Shown: positions 1-10,863 of the stretch, one piece after another
How positions within the stretch are numbered: position 1 is the first letter of the stretch
Layout of the letters: every line of letters begins with the position of its first letter
Origin: a virus
DNA length: 10,863 bases
Direction: 5' to 3' (one strand)
Virus genome (UHGV): UHGV-0116495
Notes under the pieces: generated by a model
Seen by the model: only the letters and a program-made list of their open reading frames with translations
Told to the model about the DNA's origin: nothing
Databases searched by the model: none
Program-made: the position numbers and the translations under genes

Positions 1-87
1 TCTCCAATGACTAGTCTAAAAACTAGTATTAAGACTATCACTTATTTAAGTGATATTGGTTGTCTGGAGATTCAGGGGGCCAGTCTA
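1..87 (-). mobile_element. IS2: IS2 insertion sequence, terminal 87 bp of the left inverted-repeat end; the element continues beyond the window start
   Basis: Reverse complement of 1-87 reads TAGACTGGCCCCCTGAATCTCCAGACAACCAATATCACTTAAATAAGTGATAGTCTTAATACTAGTTTTTAGACTAGTCATTGGAGA, which matches my recollection of the IS2 left end just upstream of the insC start. Recalled from memory, not aligned. Confidence 0.8.
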
Positions 88-1122
88 CAGACCAATTAAT
101 GCATCTCTAAAAACACAGGCCGTTATCTCATGATTATGATAAGCAACTGTTTGCTGTGACCTGTCTCCATATTCAATACACGTGCAATTTGAAGCTGAGC
201 CATCAATGTCAATATACGAAATAGATGTCTGTTTTTTCTTTCTCACATCAACAATAGGATCTGCATATCCAATAGTATGGTCATCTGCTAGCTTAAGTGT
301 AGATTTAAGATTAAAACCTGATGAAGAGTAAGCCCACGCAGATTTGATGCCTGTGAGAGCCTTGTTATCTTGCATAACTACAGGTGTCTTAATAAACAAA
401 TACCTGTCTACTAGCACCTCAACCCCATACGGACTGTTCAGAGCTTTATTTATTGGTATAGCGTTATCGGTTTCGGGACCTGGCTTAGCTCCGTAAAAAA
501 TCGCATTCAGAGGTCCATTGAAAGTCCCAGCATACAATCCATCCCTCACAACCTGACCTACCGCTCCAGTATTAATGACAATACCATCATCTGGAGCTAG
601 GTTTCGATTGCTGTAATATGTGAAACGCCCCCCAGCTAAATCGCCAGTTTCGAATCCGTATTTCGCTATAATAATTGTTCCGTCTTCAAAATCATCTCCT
701 GTTTCGGCAGCAATATCTACGTATCTGAATCCTAGTCCGCCAATAAGTGTATATCCATTTTCCCCTTCAATTAACCCCCTAAATTGATCTGGGTCATACT
801 TAATTATGTTTGGATAGTAGAACTGCTGTGTACCATACGCATCATAAACAGCCATAGAATGGCCTTGCACAGTTACGAACTTGGCAATCTGTCCGTTATA
901 TACCGGATATCCAGCAGCATTAATGATGATTGGTTGCGGAACAGGAACGTGAGAGCCGTCTTCGTTCTCCACATAAACCTGAATCTGGTTTTCAGGATTT
1001 ACCGGGTCAGTGTCAATTTTACCGATATAAATTTTGCCATTAGCTACGGCTTTAAAAGAACGCGCCATAGTGAAGAGTTGCGAAGGCATCGATACGATCA
1101 CATTGGCTGTAATGTCTGTCAT
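85..1122 (-). pseudogene. P22-like tailspike (gp9 family): conserved N-terminal head-binding domain plus part of a non-P22 receptor-binding domain, truncated at codon 345 by IS2
   Basis: N-terminus [46 protein letters not shown] closely resembles the P22/Sf6/HK620 tailspike head-binding domain. At 345 aa it is about half the length of known tailspikes. The stop codon TAG (85-87) is the first three bases of the IS2 end. RBS TGGAG lies upstream of the ATG at 1122. Confidence 0.75.
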
Positions 1123-1257
1123 TTAATTTGCTCCAGATACAAGGAATCGCCGCAGCATGGCTACGGTTGGTATTTGTTTGGTTTTTGAACTACGAAAATT
1201 TCGTAGTGCTATCCATCAAGGCCATCGCCGCTTAGTTGCTGCGGTGAATTTTGGGCA

Positions 1258-1282
1258 TAAAAAAACCCAGCCGAAGCTGGGT
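1258..1282 (-). terminator. Rho-independent terminator downstream of ant
   Basis: On the - strand: 7-bp stem ACCCAGC/GCTGGGT (1265-1271 and 1276-1282) with loop CGAA, followed by a run of seven U (complement of the A-run at 1259-1265). Confidence 0.6.
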
Positions 1283-1300
1283 CGTTGCGTTGGTTATCTG

Positions 1301-2179
1301 TCAGTAGTTATGTACTGAAGGAGGCAATTCTTTATTCTTAAGTCTCATCCATGCGGAAAGATTCGTTGGTCCGTCTGGCTCATTAATATCAACATCTCGT
1401 GTGTGGTTTATTAAAACGTCTCTCGCCATTCCGATAACATACGAGAATTCATGACCGTAGTCGTAGCATCTGCCGGAATAGTTCGATTGAATTTGTTTTA
1501 GCGCCGGATACAGTTCGCGGAATAATGCCTGTGAGCGGTTGGCATAATCCCATAACCATACAAGGCTGTTTGCTTCTTTTGCAGAAAGCTCGTTGGTTTT
1601 CTTCTCTTGTTTGCCAATGAACTCACCTTCAAGCACTACCCTGTGGATGTACTCTACGGCCAGCGGGATTTGTTCAATTGAAAGTTCATCAATGCTGTCA
1701 ATACCAAAACGCTGATGAACCATATTGTATGCATCGTCATAGCGAAGTCCTTTCTTTCCTACCAGCATGTTTACTGCATCGCGTAGCGGTGTTCTTTCCT
1801 CAACAGTGGTTTTCTTTCCTTTTACATACTCGCCATGTTTGCGAATTGAAGGCAGAACTTCTGCTGTTACCCACTTGCGGAATTTGTGCGGGACTGAACC
1901 TTTATTGACTGCATCGCGGCAGCGCAGAACCAATGTATACATACCTGATTCGCTCACAATGCTTAGATTCTGCTCACCACCAAGGGTGTAACTTAAAGTT
2001 ACTCCCTTTTCATCGTCATCAAGTGCAGTAAGCGCCTTGCGTGAGTTAGTCAAATCTAAAGCATCACAAACATCTTTAGCTACAAACCACGGCTCACCGC
2101 ACTTGTTGATGACGCGGATTTCACTGTCGCCGAATTTGAAGATGGTGAAATCGTTTTGTGCCTTTGCTATACTTTTCAT
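1301..2179 (-). CDS. ant: Antirepressor Ant (immI region), 292 aa
   Basis: Sits immediately downstream of arc on the same strand and upstream of the tailspike, as in P22 immI. Size is close to P22 Ant. AGGAAA RBS upstream of the ATG at 2179. The N-terminal region has the look of a Bro-N/AntA-type domain. Confidence 0.85.
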
Positions 2180-2247
2180 GTCAATATTTCCTAATCCGAT
2201 TTGTTGATGCCGAAGCCCTGACTGTTACAGCAGTTGGGGCTTCAACT

Positions 2248-2409
2248 TTACGCACCAATGCGCCCTTCCTTCTTAAAGCTTTCCATTACTCGCTGATAAA
2301 TCTCAGAATTAACAGACCGACCATTTTCTTCCGCCACCTTGCGTACCAAATCCAATACTTCTTTAGGCCACCGCAAATTGAACTGTGGCATTTTGCTCAT
2401 TCCTTTCAT
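2248..2409 (-). CDS. arc: Arc repressor (ribbon-helix-helix), 53 aa
   Basis: Translation MKGMSKMPQFNLRWPKEVLDLVRKVAEENGRSVNSEIYQRVMESFKKEGRIGA is essentially the P22 Arc sequence as I recall it (one R/K difference). GAGGTGA RBS 5 nt upstream of the ATG at 2409. The longer track ORF starting at 2472 begins inside the operator and is rejected. Confidence 0.9.
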   Translation of the reverse strand: MKGMSKMPQFNLRWPKEVLDLVRKVAEENGRSVNSEIYQRVMESFKKEGRIGA

Positions 2410-2425
2410 GTTCACCTCACAATAT

Positions 2426-2442
2426 AGGTCCACGGTGGACCT
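2426..2442. promoter_or_regulatory. Mnt operator (Omnt), 17-bp perfect palindrome AGGTCCACGGTGGACCT
   Basis: Exact match to the P22 Mnt operator as I recall it; lies just downstream of the Pant -10. Confidence 0.8.
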
Positions 2443-2448
2443 ATTGAG

Positions 2449-2477
2449 AATATAGTAGAGTGCTTCTATCATGTCAA
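2449..2477 (-). promoter_or_regulatory. Pant promoter (-35 TTGACA, 17-bp spacer, -10 TATATT) driving arc-ant
   Basis: On the - strand: TTGACA (complement of 2472-2477), a 17-bp spacer containing Oarc, then TATATT (complement of 2449-2454). Omnt overlaps the expected transcription start. Confidence 0.7.
2452..2472. promoter_or_regulatory. Arc operator (Oarc), 21 bp ATAGTAGAGTGCTTCTATCAT
   Basis: Matches the P22 Arc operator with TAGA/TCTA half-sites; located between the -35 and -10 of Pant. Confidence 0.8.
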
Positions 2478-2499
2478 TACACTAACTTGGAGTGATGGC

Positions 2500-2754
2500 A
2501 TGGCTAGAGATGATCCGCACTTTAACTTCCGTATGCCTTTGGAAGTAAGAGAAAAATTGAAATTAAGAGCCGAGGCTAACGGAAGGTCAATGAACTCTGA
2601 GTTATTACAAATCGTTCAGGATGCACTATCAAAACCATCACCGATTACAGGATATCGCGACGAAGCTGAACGCTTGGCTGATCAGCAGGCTGAGCAGTTC
2701 AAGGCTATAGTGTTTGAGACACTTAAAAAGATTTATGAAAAGGATTTGAAATGA
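2500..2754 (+). CDS. mnt: Mnt repressor (ribbon-helix-helix), 84 aa
   Basis: N-terminus MARDDPHFNFRMPLEVREKLKLRAEANGRSMNSELLQIVQDALSKPSP matches P22 Mnt as I recall it. GGAGTGA RBS upstream. Divergent from arc-ant across the operator region. Confidence 0.9.
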   Translation: MARDDPHFNFRMPLEVREKLKLRAEANGRSMNSELLQIVQDALSKPSPITGYRDEAERLADQQAEQFKAIVFETLKKIYEKDLK

Positions 2755-3086
2755 GATTTCTATCACTGTTCTTGTTAGCAGTTGTCTCTTCTTCCAGTGC
2801 TGAGCTGCGCGAGCTTCAAACGGGTAATGACCTTCTTTACAACATTCAACAAGGTAAAAAGGGTGATGATTTTTCATCGCTTTACATTACTGGATATTTG
2901 CGCGGAGTAACTGACTCATTGATACTAATTGGTTCTCTATGTCCTCCTGATGGCGTTGACATGTATCAATACACCGATATCGTTGAGAAATATCTAAACA
3001 AAAACCCAGAATCAAGAAATGAGAGTGCAGTTATACTAACCGCCCTAGCAGTAGGAAAAACATTTCCGTGCAAAAAGAATCAATAA
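2751..3086 (+). CDS. Small secreted protein, 111 aa: predicted Sec signal peptide, two Cys in the mature part, family unknown
   Basis: Start ATG overlaps the mnt stop (ATGA at 2751-2754), implying translational coupling. N-terminus MRFLSLFLLAVVSSSSA-ELRE looks like a cleavable signal peptide. Mature part has two Cys (LCPPDG and FPCKK). Visibly AT-richer than the flanking late genes. Confidence 0.55.
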   Translation: MRFLSLFLLAVVSSSSAELRELQTGNDLLYNIQQGKKGDDFSSLYITGYLRGVTDSLILIGSLCPPDGVDMYQYTDIVEKYLNKNPESRNESAVILTALAVGKTFPCKKNQ

Positions 3087-3101
3087 CAATAAGGGCTTAA
3101 A

Positions 3102-3491
3102 ATGAAATTGATTATAGCAATGGCTTTCCTTGTCTTCTCGTTTTCTGTCTCAGCAGAGTGCTGGGTCGTTGGAGATATGCACGGAATAAGCTATTCAGAA
3201 CGAAATAATTTTCAACCGGAAGAAGATGGTTTTAGTGGAACATTCATCATTAAGACAAACGATGAAGATGCCAGTATCACATATTCTGGGACGGATGCGG
3301 GCGGCATGGCTTACAAAGCATTGTCTAAAAACTCCATCATTGGAATCGGTGCGAATGGCGAAACTCAACGAGTTATCGACTCATGGGTAATACATCCTAA
3401 TGGAACAGTTTTAATGTCGAAAACCATTTCTGGTTATGGGAATATGGATTCAACCAAAGCTTTTGTTGGAAAAGTAAAAAGAAAATGTTAA
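3102..3491 (+). CDS. Small secreted protein, 129 aa: predicted Sec signal peptide, Cys near both ends of the mature part, family unknown
   Basis: AAGGG RBS 7 nt upstream of the ATG. N-terminus MKLIIAMAFLVFSFSVSA-ECW looks like a signal peptide without a lipobox. Gly/Ser/Thr-rich, probably mostly beta. Same strand as, and 15 bp after, the previous ORF. AT-rich. Confidence 0.55.
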   Translation: MKLIIAMAFLVFSFSVSAECWVVGDMHGISYSERNNFQPEEDGFSGTFIIKTNDEDASITYSGTDAGGMAYKALSKNSIIGIGANGETQRVIDSWVIHPNGTVLMSKTISGYGNMDSTKAFVGKVKRKC

Positions 3492-3515
3492 CGATTGAAT
3501 CCAATTCCCCATACG

Positions 3516-5357
3516 TTACTGCTGTGTTGCCTCAGTAGCAAGCAGCGGCCTGATGGCATTTGCAGCGTTACTCAACGCTCTTTCATAGGCTGGCGTTCCA
3601 GCTTTAGTGTTTGCCAGACGTAAGAGAGCATTCCTTGCTGCTTTGGACTCATACAAACGCATCATTGCACCAAAGCCAGCCTCAAGCCCCATTGATACAC
3701 CAAGAGTCGCAGTTGCGCCAATCGTCCTTATCCTGTTGGCTTGTGATTGCCCCGTCTGAGTTACTACATTTGCGGTGTCTGACCTTGCTGTTTGCTGTAG
3801 AACTTCATGAAGAGCATCAAGCTCTTTCATGTGCTTTCCAGAAAAAATAGTGTTGTAAATTTCACCGCCTGACTGAGATTTCAGCTTATTAACTTCAGTG
3901 ATGAACTTGGCTGGAGAGTCACCGGCCTTTTCCGCTATTTTGCTGACGTAAGCTGCACGCATAGCATCTTTCCCTTTATCATCCAGGGCGCTCCATATTC
4001 GTTTCACGTCAGATGGTTTTCTGCTTAATACAACGGTATTTATAAGTTCAGGACTGGCTTCACTGCTTGCCTTGTTGAGCTTGTTAGCAATGTTTTTATT
4101 AAGCACCTTATTATAAACGTTTGCATAATCGGAATTTGCTTTAAGGTATTTTGCTGCGTCTGATGCACCGAGGTTTTTAGCAACTGCGTTACGAAGGTCT
4201 TTTGACATTGCATTCTCTACCATATTGGTAGCTGCTTTTGCCTGGTTGGGGAAGACCATAGCATCTCCCTGAACATTAGATCTAAATGCTGTTCTGTGCT
4301 GACGCAAGAGATCAAACGTAACATCCAAATCAGTTGCAGGGTTTGCTAATTCTTCACGTAGGTTACGCAAGGATGTAAGCAGGCTTTGATTGGCAGACGT
4401 CCCAAGCCGTTCCTGTCTTGCGATCGCTGTATTCAGAGCATTCATGGTATTTGTGGTATCAACTGCGGCATTACCCATTTTATTGGTGACGTCATTGATA
4501 ACAGCGCCAGCGGCATCCTTCCGCCCCCTTAACGTGGTGGTAAGAGATTTCACCACATCATCAGGGTTGTACTCACCAAAACGGTCAAAATAATTACTTA
4601 CCAGCTTACTACGCGTTGCATATTGCTCCGCTCGCTTTGAGCCTGTCCCGAGCAAAGCCCCCTCGGCATCCTGAGTTAGGCCGCGAGTGAAAGCATTTTT
4701 CGGCGGGATAACATCAGATGTCATTGGTGTCACGCCCATCGATTCTGATGTGGCAATTTTCTTCGCCACTTCTGGCGCAATATCACCTTTTATAGCCGTT
4801 ATTCCACGCCCTATTCCCTTTGCTGCTGCGGAAAGAACACCCTGAGTGGCAAGGTTAACTCCGGCATTTTTAGCTGCATTTTGTGCGAAATCGCCTTTCT
4901 GATTTGCGGCCTCTGCCAGTGATCCAATAGCCATGCTTCCTGCCGTTCCAACTCCTGGAACTAAATACCCACCAATTGTTTCACCGGCTTGCGCGTAGGG
5001 GTCTGTCGGTCTGTCTACTGGACGATAAACATCATCCAAAACCTTGGGTCCACCAAGCCCCTGACTGATTGCATTAATCAGACTTGCGCCGCCCTGCAAT
5101 ACGTCAAATGGTATGTTTACCAGACCACGACCAGCCTGTTCTGCAATTTGCCCTGCACTTTGACCACCAGTGAGCCAATCGCCAGCTTGTTGGATCAATG
5201 ATGGTTCTTCCCGTGTTGGTGCATTATTGGCCTGATTAACTGTTTGTTGCTGAACAGCCTGACCAGCAAAATACTCATCAATGGCGGTGCCAATATCTTC
5301 GGTGCTCGTACCATCAGGAAAGGTAAATGTCTTACCGTTTGCAGTTACTTTCATCAT
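3516..5357 (-). CDS. gp16: P22 gp16-like ejection (injection) protein, 613 aa
   Basis: Position and size match P22 gene 16 (about 609 aa) in the 7-20-16 order. Start ATG overlaps the gp20 stop (ATGA). Ala/Gly-rich composition typical of ejection proteins. Confidence 0.85.
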
Positions 5358-7474: not shown

Positions 7475-7930
7475 CTATCTCCCGTGATTCAGGAATTCGA
7501 TTAGTTCTTCGCGTGTAGCACTGTAAAATGTCACGTCATCCACGCCTTTGAAGTATTTCTTGATGGTTCCTACACGCTTAAGTCCAATCATTGCGCAGTA
7601 CATCTGCCCGTGGCGGAATTTGCGTGCAGCGAACGATGTGACGCACTGAACGGTGGTGTTAGTCAGAATGTATCGCCAGAACGCCAGCCCGATTTCCTTG
7701 CTGAATCCGCGAATCTCTGGCAGGTACATGGCGTGGCAATCGAATGTAAGCGGCTGAATCTCCTGATAGTAAACAATGCCGCCGAACTGCCCGTGCACGT
7801 TCACCTCAAAGTAACGGCAATCAGGTTTGTAGTCGTATCCATCACCGTTGTTGCTCCCGGCAATAATGTCAGGGTGATTTCCGACTGCTTCGATCAGGTC
7901 GATGTTTCGCGTTGGTTTGAACTGAATCAT
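7475..7930 (-). CDS. gp14-position protein of the P22-like late operon, 151 aa (call is by synteny)
   Basis: Lies between the tail-needle fragment and gp7, where P22 has gene 14. Its ATG overlaps the stop of the upstream needle fragment by one base (TAATG). I do not recognise the sequence itself. Confidence 0.55.
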   Translation of the reverse strand: MIQFKPTRNIDLIEAVGNHPDIIAGSNNGDGYDYKPDCRYFEVNVHGQFGGIVYYQEIQPLTFDCHAMYLPEIRGFSKEIGLAFWRYILTNTTVQCVTSFAARKFRHGQMYCAMIGLKRVGTIKKYFKGVDDVTFYSATREELIEFLNHGR

Positions 7931-8403
7931 TACTGCTCCGCGATTATCTTGATGGTTGTGGCAGTAAACGCCGCACCATTAGACTGAATGGTTAACGTGC
8001 TGCCATTTGTGGCAAGAAAGCCGTCTTTATCCACACTGAAGAACGTAGCTAACAGGATGTTGTCGGTTGTTGTCGCCGCATTACGACTGCTGACCAACGT
8101 GTCAGGAACAGAGCCGGAAAAGGTTAGCTGCATTGACCTGTTGGTGGTTCCGCTGGGCCACGTCCCGACAATCGACAGCTTGAAGAACAAGGTTTTGTTC
8201 TCGTTGAACACAACCATCTTGTTGTTAACAGTGTCGAAGAATGGTGCCAACGTCCCGGATGACGGCGTGAGCGTTTTCAGCAGGCTAACAAGGTTGGTCG
8301 GCGCTGTCGGAATGGTTACTGATACGCCAGAGTAAACAACCTCTGACTTCTTGCGCGTGGTTGCATACTCCAGAGCATCAATGCGCGTTTCATGGTCTGA
8401 AAT
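7930..8403 (-). pseudogene. 3' fragment of the tail-needle gene (P22 gp26 family): end of the coiled coil plus C-terminal domain, about 157 codons, no start codon
   Basis: The in-frame region runs from the stop at 8404-8406 to the stop at 7930-7932. It contains ISDHETRIDALEY, resembling the DHE-containing heptad repeats of the gp26 coiled coil. There is no ATG or GTG before the TTG at 8250. The gene's 5' part, including the gp10-binding N-terminus, is absent. Stop overlaps the next gene's start as in an intact late operon. Confidence 0.6.
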
Positions 8404-8464
8404 CTATTGTTAATCTCCAATCAATGTTACGTTGTCATCTCACTCATGCTTTGGAGGTAGTGAT

Positions 8465-8644
8465 ATGTCTTGTCCAAAATGCGGTTCTGGAAATATTGCA
8501 AAAGAAAAAACAATGCGTGGATGGTCTGATGATTATGTGTGCTGCGATTGCGGATACAACGACTCTAAAGACGCATTTGGAGAGCGTGGTAAAAACGAGT
8601 TTGTCAAAATTAATAAAGAAAGCGAAGGCAACGAAAAAAGCTAA
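8465..8644 (+). CDS. Small zinc-ribbon protein, 59 aa (CPKC-x18-CCDC), with an acidic/lysine-rich C-terminal tail
   Basis: GGAGG RBS (8453-8457) 7 nt upstream of the ATG at 8465. Four Cys arranged as CxxC...CxxC. Followed by a strong terminator. AT-rich. Confidence 0.5.
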   Translation: MSCPKCGSGNIAKEKTMRGWSDDYVCCDCGYNDSKDAFGERGKNEFVKINKESEGNEKS

Positions 8645-8707
8645 TTTATTTATTCATATATGAAAACAATGTAACCAATATTCGAATTGAAGAACTGAAA
8701 GAACACC

Positions 8708-8731
8708 AAGCCGCCTGATGGCGGTTTTTTA
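8708..8731 (+). terminator. Rho-independent terminator after the zinc-ribbon ORF
   Basis: Stem AAGCCGCC/GGCGGTTT (8 bp including one G-U pair), loop TGAT, followed by TTTTTT. Confidence 0.65.
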
Positions 8732-8744
8732 TTGGAGACAAGAA

Positions 8745-9089
8745 ATGTCAGATTTGGCTATGAAGGTTTTGAAATGGCAATCGACTGGCGATGTCGGCAT
8801 CAGTAGCGCAACTCTTGCCTCAATCGCATGTGGACTGAAAAAGAATATCTATGGTCATCACTTCGGCGCTCCACATGACGCAGCAGATTTCCGACGATGC
8901 GTTGCACTTGTTGAGCAGATTCCAGAAATCAGAGATTCATTCGACAAGGTTGCAAAGCGCGTTCCGGCATTCAAAGGAATCCTCAACGAATGGGATTCAC
9001 TCGTTGCTCTGTTGAAGTCTGAAATGAAGGCGTACGGGAACAAAGCACCAGAGACTTACAGAAGAATCAGCGAGCTACGCAAGGACTAA
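8745..9089 (+). CDS. Hypothetical cytoplasmic protein, 114 aa, family unknown
   Basis: GGAGA RBS (8734-8738) about 6 nt upstream of the ATG at 8745. The track's earlier ATG at 8718 lies inside the upstream terminator loop and is rejected. No signal peptide or transmembrane segment is evident. Confidence 0.5.
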   Translation: MSDLAMKVLKWQSTGDVGISSATLASIACGLKKNIYGHHFGAPHDAADFRRCVALVEQIPEIRDSFDKVAKRVPAFKGILNEWDSLVALLKSEMKAYGNKAPETYRRISELRKD

Positions 9090-9125
9090 CGCCTCACACT
9101 CGATGAGGCCTGTACATATCTGATA

Positions 9126-9150
9126 GAGCCGCTATATGGCGGTTTCTTTT
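9126..9150 (+). terminator. Terminator-like hairpin plus U-tract between the 114-aa ORF and the alpA-like gene
   Basis: Stem GAGCCGC/GCGGTTT (with G-U pairs), loop TATATG, followed by CTTTTT. An upstream hairpin GCCTCA-N7-TGAGGC lies at 9091-9109. Confidence 0.45.
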
Positions 9151-9166
9151 TGCCTGGAGAATTAAG

Positions 9167-9358
9167 ATGACCGATACCAGCCTGATTCCTGAGAAAGAAG
9201 TGATGAACAAGCTCGGTGTTTCATCACGTCAGACAATCTGGAACTATACCAAACGGCACGGATTTCCGAAGCCAGTCAGAACCCACCCCAAATCATACCT
9301 TCGTGAAGCTGTTGAAGGGTGGATTCTTAACGGTGGCGTTAATCAGAAATGCTCCTGA
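9167..9358 (+). CDS. AlpA-family DNA-binding protein (prophage excisionase/transcriptional regulator), 63 aa
   Basis: LIPEKEVMNKLGVSSRQTIWNYTKRHGFPKPVR...EAVEGWI fits the AlpA/Xis-like winged-helix pattern (L-P-E-V...G-S-R-T-I...G-FPKP...W). GGAGA RBS upstream. Adjacent to the integrase. Confidence 0.75.
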   Translation: MTDTSLIPEKEVMNKLGVSSRQTIWNYTKRHGFPKPVRTHPKSYLREAVEGWILNGGVNQKCS

Positions 9359-10517
9359 TGTGCCAGAACAATTTATCAGCGTGAAGCTCATACGCTTTGC
9401 GCTGAGCCTCTATCCAGTCGTGTTTATTGTACACGGACATTATCCCGCCAAGTTCATGACCGAGCATTCGCTCAGTAACATGAGGCTCGACATTCATCTC
9501 GGACAGACGTGTAACAAGCGTTCTTCTGAAATCGTGTGTTCGCCAGTAACCTAGATCCATCCCTCCCCTTATTCTATTTACGAATCGGTTGGCTGCAGCG
9601 ATGCTGATCGGTTTGTTTATGTCTTCTCCAGGGAAAAGAACATCATTGTACGTTGTCATGGCCTTTTCGAGGAAAGGCTTAATTTGTTCGAAGATTGGAC
9701 GGCGGATAACATTACCCATCTTGCTATGCTCTTTCGGTACGGTCCATACGTTTTCCAGCAGATCAAATTCTGTCTTTTTTGCCAGCCTAAGCTCTGAGAG
9801 CCTCGCCCCCCACAGCATAAGCATCTGATGAAGTAGCTTATTTGACGTAGACGCACGGCTTCTTTCAATAGCAAGCCAAATCTTAGCCAGTTCGTGATAC
9901 GACAGTACCCGATCCCCTACCTCAGCGCGGGAGCCGAAGTCCCTTGGTTGGATGCTCATAATTGCGCAACTATCTATCAACTGACGCCGCATGCACCAAC
10001 TTATTGCTGATCTTAGTTGACTTAGCACCTGCCTTGCTCGGCGTGGATTATCTCTTTCTTCTTCGGTAAGCAGGTCAACCCATTGCTTAACCGTGATAGA
10101 AGATGCCGGACGATTAGGAAAGGCGTCATGCATGCGCTTCATAACCGTTGATCGGTAAAGTGCCTGGGTCTTTTCTCTGAGAGTTGTAGAGACGTAGTTG
10201 TCGAACCAGTAGTCGAGACACTGGGCGACCGTCATGGAGTTCTCCACCTTCTCTTCAAAATAGGTGCGTGGATCCGTTCCTGAGAAATAGAGCTTTCGCA
10301 AGTCAGCAGTGATCTGTCTGGCATCCTTCAAAGACAGGGATGGGTATCGACCAAGCCCAAGTCGATTAGGCTTGCCATGCCAGCGATAGCGGTACTGGAA
10401 CTGGATGACCCCCTTCGGTGAAATTCGTACGCTGAGGCCATCGGCATCAGCCACTTCTTGTGGGCCCGAATATGGTTTACCATAAATAGTACGCAGTTTT
10501 GTGTCGCTTATAGCCAT
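9339..10517 (-). CDS. int: Tyrosine site-specific integrase, P4-type (N-terminal arm-binding domain plus catalytic domain), 392 aa
   Basis: The N-terminus (DGLSVRISPKGVIQFQYRYRWHGKPNRLGLGRYPSLSLKDAR) is typical of the P4-like integrase arm-binding domain. The C-terminus has the catalytic motifs ARLSELR, HDFRRT, LGHELGG and SVYNKHDW (Tyr). It is the last prophage gene before sbcB. Confidence 0.9.
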   Translation of the reverse strand: MAISDTKLRTIYGKPYSGPQEVADADGLSVRISPKGVIQFQYRYRWHGKPNRLGLGRYPSLSLKDARQITADLRKLYFSGTDPRTYFEEKVENSMTVAQCLDYWFDNYVSTTLREKTQALYRSTVMKRMHDAFPNRPASSITVKQWVDLLTEEERDNPRRARQVLSQLRSAISWCMRRQLIDSCAIMSIQPRDFGSRAEVGDRVLSYHELAKIWLAIERSRASTSNKLLHQMLMLWGARLSELRLAKKTEFDLLENVWTVPKEHSKMGNVIRRPIFEQIKPFLEKAMTTYNDVLFPGEDINKPISIAAANRFVNRIRGGMDLGYWRTHDFRRTLVTRLSEMNVEPHVTERMLGHELGGIMSVYNKHDWIEAQRKAYELHADKLFWHIRSISD

Positions 10518-10525
10518 AAATAATA

Positions 10526-10569
10526 TTTGGTACGCTCAAAAATAATGGTTTGGTACACATCTGGTACAC
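10526..10569. repeat. Three direct repeats of TGGTAC(A/G)C upstream of int
   Basis: TTTGGTACGC (10526-10535), TTTGGTACAC (10549-10558) and CTGGTACAC (10561-10569), in an AT-rich junction between int and sbcB. Candidate arm-type or regulatory sites. Confidence 0.5.
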
Positions 10570-10698
10570 AATATCACATGGACAACAGCGCACAGTAAAC
10601 AACTATATTTGACGTTCGTAGACATACTCAGGTGAAAAAATGGTTGTTTTTCGAGTTATAACAGACAGTTAATTAACTACAGTGGACAATGCTAGACA

Positions 10699-10863
10699 AT
10701 GACAGACACAGATAAACAACCTACCTTCCTCTTTCACGATTACGAAACCTTTGGCACGCACCCCGCGTTAGATCGCCCTGCACAGTTCGCAGCCATTCGC
10801 ACCGATAGCGAATTCAATGTCATCGGCGAACCCGAAGTCTTTTACTGCAAGCCCGCGGATGAC
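10699..10863 (+). CDS. sbcB: Exodeoxyribonuclease I (SbcB), N-terminal 55 codons; the gene continues past the window end
   Basis: Translation MTDTDKQPTFLFHDYETFGTHPALDRPAQFAAIRTDSEFNVIGEPEVFYCKPADD matches enterobacterial exonuclease I. The open frame runs to the window edge. Confidence 0.85.
   Translation, partial: MTDTDKQPTFLFHDYETFGTHPALDRPAQFAAIRTDSEFNVIGEPEVFYCKPADD

Follow-up and report, generated by a model that had tools for sequence, protein, structure and literature searches.

The tailspikes of P22-like phages (P22 gp9, Sf6 gp14, and HK620 gp9) have an N-terminal head-binding domain, then a right-handed beta-helix that binds the receptor, and a C-terminal part; they form trimers that bind or cleave O-antigen. 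Their gene follows mnt-arc-ant and has gtrABC as its neighbor. Cryptic lambdoid and P22-like prophages of E. coli decay by deletion and IS insertion. IS2 belongs to the IS3 family and moves via figure-of-eight and minicircle intermediates (PMC3299598, PMC3219604); its left repeat reads 5'-TAG...TTAA and its right repeat 5'-TGGATT...TTAA (PMC3299598). In E. coli K-12, the copy IS2A splits yaiX, leaving a 5-bp duplication and the gene in two annotated fragments.

The locus analyzed here resembles each of these systems. We refer to the whole stretch of 10,863 nt that was analyzed as the window, and we consider it highly probable (about 0.93) that IS2 inserted at codon 345/346 of the tailspike gene in a defective P22-like E. 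coli prophage. Like IS2A in yaiX, the element has the same terminal sequence (87/87), a 5-bp duplication, and a target gene in two fragments, while the target is a different gene and the IS2 variant is 96 to 98% identical to IS2A over 125 nt at each end. Like the tailspikes of P22, Sf6, and HK620, the encoded protein has a head-binding domain, approximately 90% identical to that of Sf6 gp14 over amino acids (aa) 1 to 115, followed by a predicted beta-helix whose fold is closest to that of Sf6 (2vbe), and the gene has the same neighbors; it differs in that the receptor-binding part has no sequence match among solved structures in the PDB and in that the copy in the window is cut at residue 345 of 623. 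Like other cryptic E. coli prophages, the remnant lacks most phage functions, has its integrase end fused to a shortened tail-needle gene, keeps the lysogenic-conversion genes gtrABC, and carries an IS in a structural gene; it is one more instance, with no substantive difference. The relevant features of the window are as follows.

1 to 87, minus strand: IS2 left end, IS2 nt 1 to 87 (left inverted repeat and subterminal sequence), 87/87 identity to IS2A of MG1655
85 to 87, minus strand: TAG stop codon of the truncated tailspike gene, formed by IS2 nt 1 to 3; the intact allele has CGT (Arg346) here
88 to 92, no strand assigned: one copy of the 5-bp target-site duplication, CAGAC on the plus strand and GTCTG on the gene strand, found beside both IS2 ends
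88 to 1122, minus strand: proximal tailspike codons (345, of 623 in the intact gene), 100% nucleotide identity to nt 1 to 1035 of the gene in strain 2-1
88 to 783, minus strand: linker and roughly the N-terminal third of the receptor-binding beta-helix, aa 114 to 345, as placed by an AlphaFold model
784 to 1122, minus strand: head-binding domain, aa 1 to 113 (Pfam PF09008; PDB entry 7sg7, Sf6 gp14 aa 1 to 115)
1131 to 1134, minus strand: Shine-Dalgarno-like GGAG, 8 nt 5' of the tailspike ATG, read directly from the sequence
1264 to 1283, minus strand: terminator-like hairpin GACCCAGCTTCGGCTGGGTT with a T-run, between the ant stop codon and the tailspike start, a match to the consensus only

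The tailspike ORF runs from 1122 to 85 on the minus strand and comprises 345 codons followed by the TAG stop. The Head_binding family covers aa 1 to 113 over its full length (profile positions 1 to 113 of 113, E=6.7e-67), and a sequence search of the PDB matched the N-termini of Sf6-, P22-, and HK620-type tailspikes with a best E value of 4.6e-64 and found no match past about residue 174. Thus, the reading in the first-pass annotation of a P22/Sf6/HK620-like N-terminal domain in a protein that stops after 345 aa is borne out. Four complete E. coli chromosomes (2-1, CUVM3, CPww7, and OY754392, which are from pig or carry no source label) match 88 to 2300 at 100%, while 1 to 87 is unmatched at their tailspike locus; homology between the window and this intact allele starts exactly at 88, and the strains with the intact tailspike differ from the window at 2 of 8,213 bases. 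The annotation of strain 2-1 gives the gene product (L002 5164-7035) as a 623-aa "phage head-binding domain-containing protein," which is identical to the window product over 345 residues and then continues with RSDMAGLMRV... to residue 623 (...LIGL-RSDMAGL... across the break). Because this intact 623-aa allele exists, the 345-aa length represents a truncation that cuts off 278 codons. A natively short tailspike is ruled out, as an allele that is 100% identical reads through to 623 aa. None of the complete RefSeq E. coli genomes has the IS2 insertion found in the window.

The segment that supplies the stop codon is the end of IS2. Positions 87 to 1 align with IS2A, a mobile element annotated in E. 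coli K-12 MG1655 (1,331 bp; 1761-3091 of the fetched locus L007) without a single mismatch, in agreement with the earlier proposal that the TAG consists of the first three bases of the IS2 left end. Both the left terminal inverted repeat (5'-TAGACTGGCCCC...) and the subterminal sequence next to it are present, the segment ends 3 nt short of the ATG of orfA/insA, and IS2 and the tailspike gene are co-oriented. The match (E=3e-37 against 28 Gb) is far beyond what would be expected by chance. These 87 nt are found 21,673 times across 4,742 of 5,426 complete E. coli genomes (median of 3 and maximum of 41 per genome), and one genomic copy adjoins a gene annotated as "IS3 family transposase, programmed frameshift." An in-frame TAG calls for no special explanation, as an insertion can land in any of three phases.

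The window corresponds to nt 238 to 11100 of contig k127_6108 (L003) in the human gut metagenome assembly ENA ERZ917573 (run ERR1578662), with 100% identity across its full 10,863 bases. Eight contigs encode the exact 345-aa product, and the two of these that were examined (k127_6108 and a contig from a second sample, ERZ28601537 [L004], with an identical left junction) end 54 to 125 nt into IS2, as short-read assemblies stop at multicopy repeats. A simple insertion predicts a distal ORF of 275 aa starting at Met349, and we found exactly this sequence (P0020; NCBI NJT74422.1, locus tag HCW86_23045; ENA; Logan) on 13 contigs that are divided among at least four breakpoints. The far junction was thus recovered by way of the protein collection; the window junction was not found in an exact-pattern scan of GTDB species-representative genomes, and exact-pattern scans of JGI metagenomes and GTDB genomes did not find the predicted far junction. 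Gene callers start the distal ORF at Met349, and a candidate chimeric ORF of 292 aa, starting from a GTG in the IS2 right end, is absent from the collection as an exact sequence.

Among the contigs with the distal ORF, k127_24749 (L010) comes from the same sample as the window, ERZ917573. Its nt 1 to 125 are 96% identical to nt 1207 to 1331 of IS2A and represent the IS2 right end, including the right terminal inverted repeat (...GGGGCAAATCCA-3'), which lies outside the window. The junction reads ...GGGGCAAATCCA, then GTCTG, then CGTTCTGATATG..., and the tailspike reading frame continues from codon 346 to its stop; from the junction to the end of the tailspike gene and on through gtrCBA, the contig and the intact allele are 100% identical. 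Tailspike homology ends at gene nt 1035 on k127_6108 and starts at gene nt 1031 on k127_24749, giving an overlap of 5 bp. The overlapping GTCTG corresponds to 6001-6005 of L002 in strain 2-1 and adjoins the IS2 right end at nt 126 to 130 of k127_24749; IS2A in K-12 is flanked by the 5-bp repeat ATTAC. The first-pass annotation had expected the rest of IS2, a 5-bp target duplication, and the distal tailspike sequence beyond the start of the window, and the duplication and the distal sequence were both recovered, along with a further 125 nt of IS2 at its right end. Its statement that the C-terminus is lost holds for the 345-aa product, while the coding sequence itself has been displaced and is still in the genome, on k127_24749. 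The two junction contigs appear to be linked by their matching breakpoints in one metagenome sample. A complete IS2 is a 1,331-bp element with orfA and orfB, from which programmed -1 frameshifting yields the DDE transposase. The start codon of orfA is on k127_6108 and the end of orfB on k127_24749, with 125 nt assembled for each IS end. This IS2 copy is a sequence variant that differs from IS2A at 2 of 125 positions on the left (both past nt 87; k127_6108 11014-11138) and at 5 of 125 on the right (k127_24749 1-125).

These data support a simple insertion over three alternatives. The best of these, which we regard as very unlikely, is that a deletion, an inversion, or recombination between copies of IS2 moved or removed the distal part of the tailspike gene, so that unrelated DNA would lie past IS2. 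The contigs do not span IS2, and the number of IS2 ends per E. coli genome makes recombination between copies possible. However, a rearrangement would leave no matching duplication, whereas the same sample holds the exact reciprocal junction with the 5-bp target overlap and perfect identity through gtrCBA. The proximal fragment is on seven to eight contigs and the distal ORF on 13, the latter split among at least four breakpoints. Still less probable is that the two ends belong to a partial or internally deleted IS2 rather than to a complete 1,331-bp element. Only 125 nt are assembled at each end, and both ends carry mismatches to IS2A; yet contigs are expected to break at the ends of a multicopy repeat, a deleted element shorter than the read or insert length is usually assembled through, and the 5-bp duplication indicates a transposition that involved both ends. 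Finally, the IS2 bases lie at the extreme end of a contig from a short-read metagenome assembly and might be a chimeric join to a gene that is really intact, but there is next to no chance of this given that the identical junction was recovered from independent samples and assemblers (k127_6108, the ERZ28601537 contig, and Logan contigs), that the join coincides exactly with the terminal base of IS2, and that the reciprocal junction exists.

In the favored reading, IS2 transposed into the tailspike gene in the orientation of the gene, duplicating the 5-bp target GTCTG. The 5'-TAG of its left end lies in frame, so that translation stops at the first IS2 triplet and yields the 345-aa product, and the remaining 278 codons sit past IS2, kept as the 275-aa ORF from Met349. 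Based on published work on IS2 and the IS3 family, the transposition presumably followed a copy-out/paste-in route via a minicircle. The presence of both IS2 ends together with the 5-bp duplication argues for simple transposition in which no flanking DNA was lost.

To place the break in the protein, we used an AlphaFold model of aa 154 to 623 of the intact allele, made from a 10-sequence alignment (mean pLDDT of 82.7, pTM of 0.79). The modelled part is a long stack of beta-strands, for which the best Foldseek match in the PDB is the Sf6 tailspike 2vbe (E=7e-7), with CBA120 TSP2 and other phage depolymerases also matched. The break at 345/346 corresponds to model residues 192/193 and falls within strand E190-195. 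According to the model, the window product would retain the head-binding domain along with about the first third of the beta-helix, and the insertion would remove about two thirds of the receptor-binding part, including the C-terminal part. The complete beta-helix and C-terminal part are present in the intact allele and absent from the window ORF, which ends at 345 of 623; the window ORF is therefore a truncated remnant of a P22-like tailspike of the gp9 type and not a complete member. By analogy to known P22-type tailspikes, the 345-aa fragment would be unable to bind or cleave a receptor. The remnant has no visible gene for a late-gene activator and a strong terminator-like hairpin lies 5' of the tailspike gene; thus, the fragment may be poorly transcribed. 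The receptor-binding module is found in 8 of 5,426 complete E. coli genomes, and its relatives form 3 clusters in a word-indexed search and 19 clusters among 1.84 billion representatives. This rare module spans 88 to 783 of the window and L002 5164-6690 in strain 2-1.

The gene order on the minus strand is integrase (392 aa), three small ORFs, the truncated tail-needle gene, a DUF2824 gene, gp7-like, gp20-like, and gp16-like genes, the immI region (mnt, arc, and ant together with a Rap1a-family gene and an unknown gene), the tailspike gene, IS2, and gtrCBA. The tailspike gene thus occupies the position typical of P22-like phages, where it follows immI (mnt-arc-ant) at the right-hand end of the late region. 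Between arc/ant and mnt (2444 to 2477), we observed face-to-face promoter-like sites, TTGACA-17-TATATT on the minus strand (11/12 consensus positions) and TTGAGA-17-TATCAT on the plus strand (10/12), a putative layout as expected for a P22-type immI region. Two accessory genes follow the mnt-like gene on the plus strand (2751 to 3491) and encode a 111-aa protein of the Rap1a/Tai family (type VI immunity-like) and a 129-aa protein without a Pfam match. Past IS2, the O-antigen glucosylation genes gtrCBA are intact (476, 305, and 120 aa; k127_24749 1030-3733) and run convergently to the tailspike gene; they should therefore be untouched by the insertion.

The tail-needle gene is a 106-aa ORF (7930 to 8250), which in strain 2-1 is annotated as "incomplete, missing N-terminus." It lies approximately 0.5 kb from the small genes at the integrase end, placing the deletion junction within 7930 to 8720, and the stretch from this ORF to the integrase-end genes holds no replication, lysis, packaging, or head genes. 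Hence, the internal deletion mentioned in the first-pass annotation is real, and the prophage is presumably non-viable. The strains with an intact tailspike, such as 2-1, share this deletion; thus, the IS2 insertion came later, when the prophage was already defective. As the central genes had already been lost, the insertion was most likely without phenotypic consequence. The integrase end (8720 to 10863), which comprises the 392-aa integrase, an AlpA-like 63-aa ORF, and flanking sequence, is approximately 98% identical to the corresponding end of several Stx-converting phages such as 1717 and of other lambdoid phages, including phage mEp234, indicating either that the prophage is a mosaic or that the same attachment site is used. 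The other prophage end in strain 2-1 abuts dacD-sbmC.

The same 1,872-nt tailspike gene is also broken elsewhere in other public contigs, in which at least six different breakpoints were counted and five further positions were located (L005 4415-5680; L006 1-29; L008 ~9762; L009 ~165; L011, L013, and L014 1-27; L012 1-27). Breakpoints within the gene are listed below; the IS3, IS903, and IS10 names for the insert ends are tentative and based on their terminal repeats.

Gene nt 239: IS2 in the opposite orientation
Gene nt ~720: a 1.26-kb insert with IS3-like ends
Gene nt 806: an IS903-like end beside a DDE_Tnp_1 gene
Gene nt 922: an IS10-like end
Gene nt 963: IS2

Repeated inactivation could mean that expression of the tailspike is costly to the host and selected against, or that the gene is a local hot spot for insertion, rather than reflecting neutral decay. 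The clusters of neighboring genes do look less fragmented, in a comparison that is confounded by cluster size and by partial sequences at contig ends. We nevertheless consider this reading very unlikely and set it aside: the module is uninterrupted in seven of the eight complete genomes that carry it. We read the several breakpoints as neutral decay that has been sampled very deeply. A related and similarly improbable idea is that the head-binding fragment that is kept interferes with the assembly of superinfecting P22-like phages.

Overall, this is an ordinary and already known kind of gene disruption, in which IS2 turns a tailspike gene in a cryptic prophage into a pseudogene, and beyond correct annotation its importance is small. 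In annotation, the tailspike gene should be treated as a pseudogene disrupted by IS2, with the 345-aa ORF as its 5' fragment and the 275-aa "hypothetical protein" (for example, NJT74422.1) as its 3' fragment. The IS2 repeat explains where short-read contigs of the tailspike locus end, and the pair of junctions could mark the lineage of the carrier E. coli strain in gut metagenomes.
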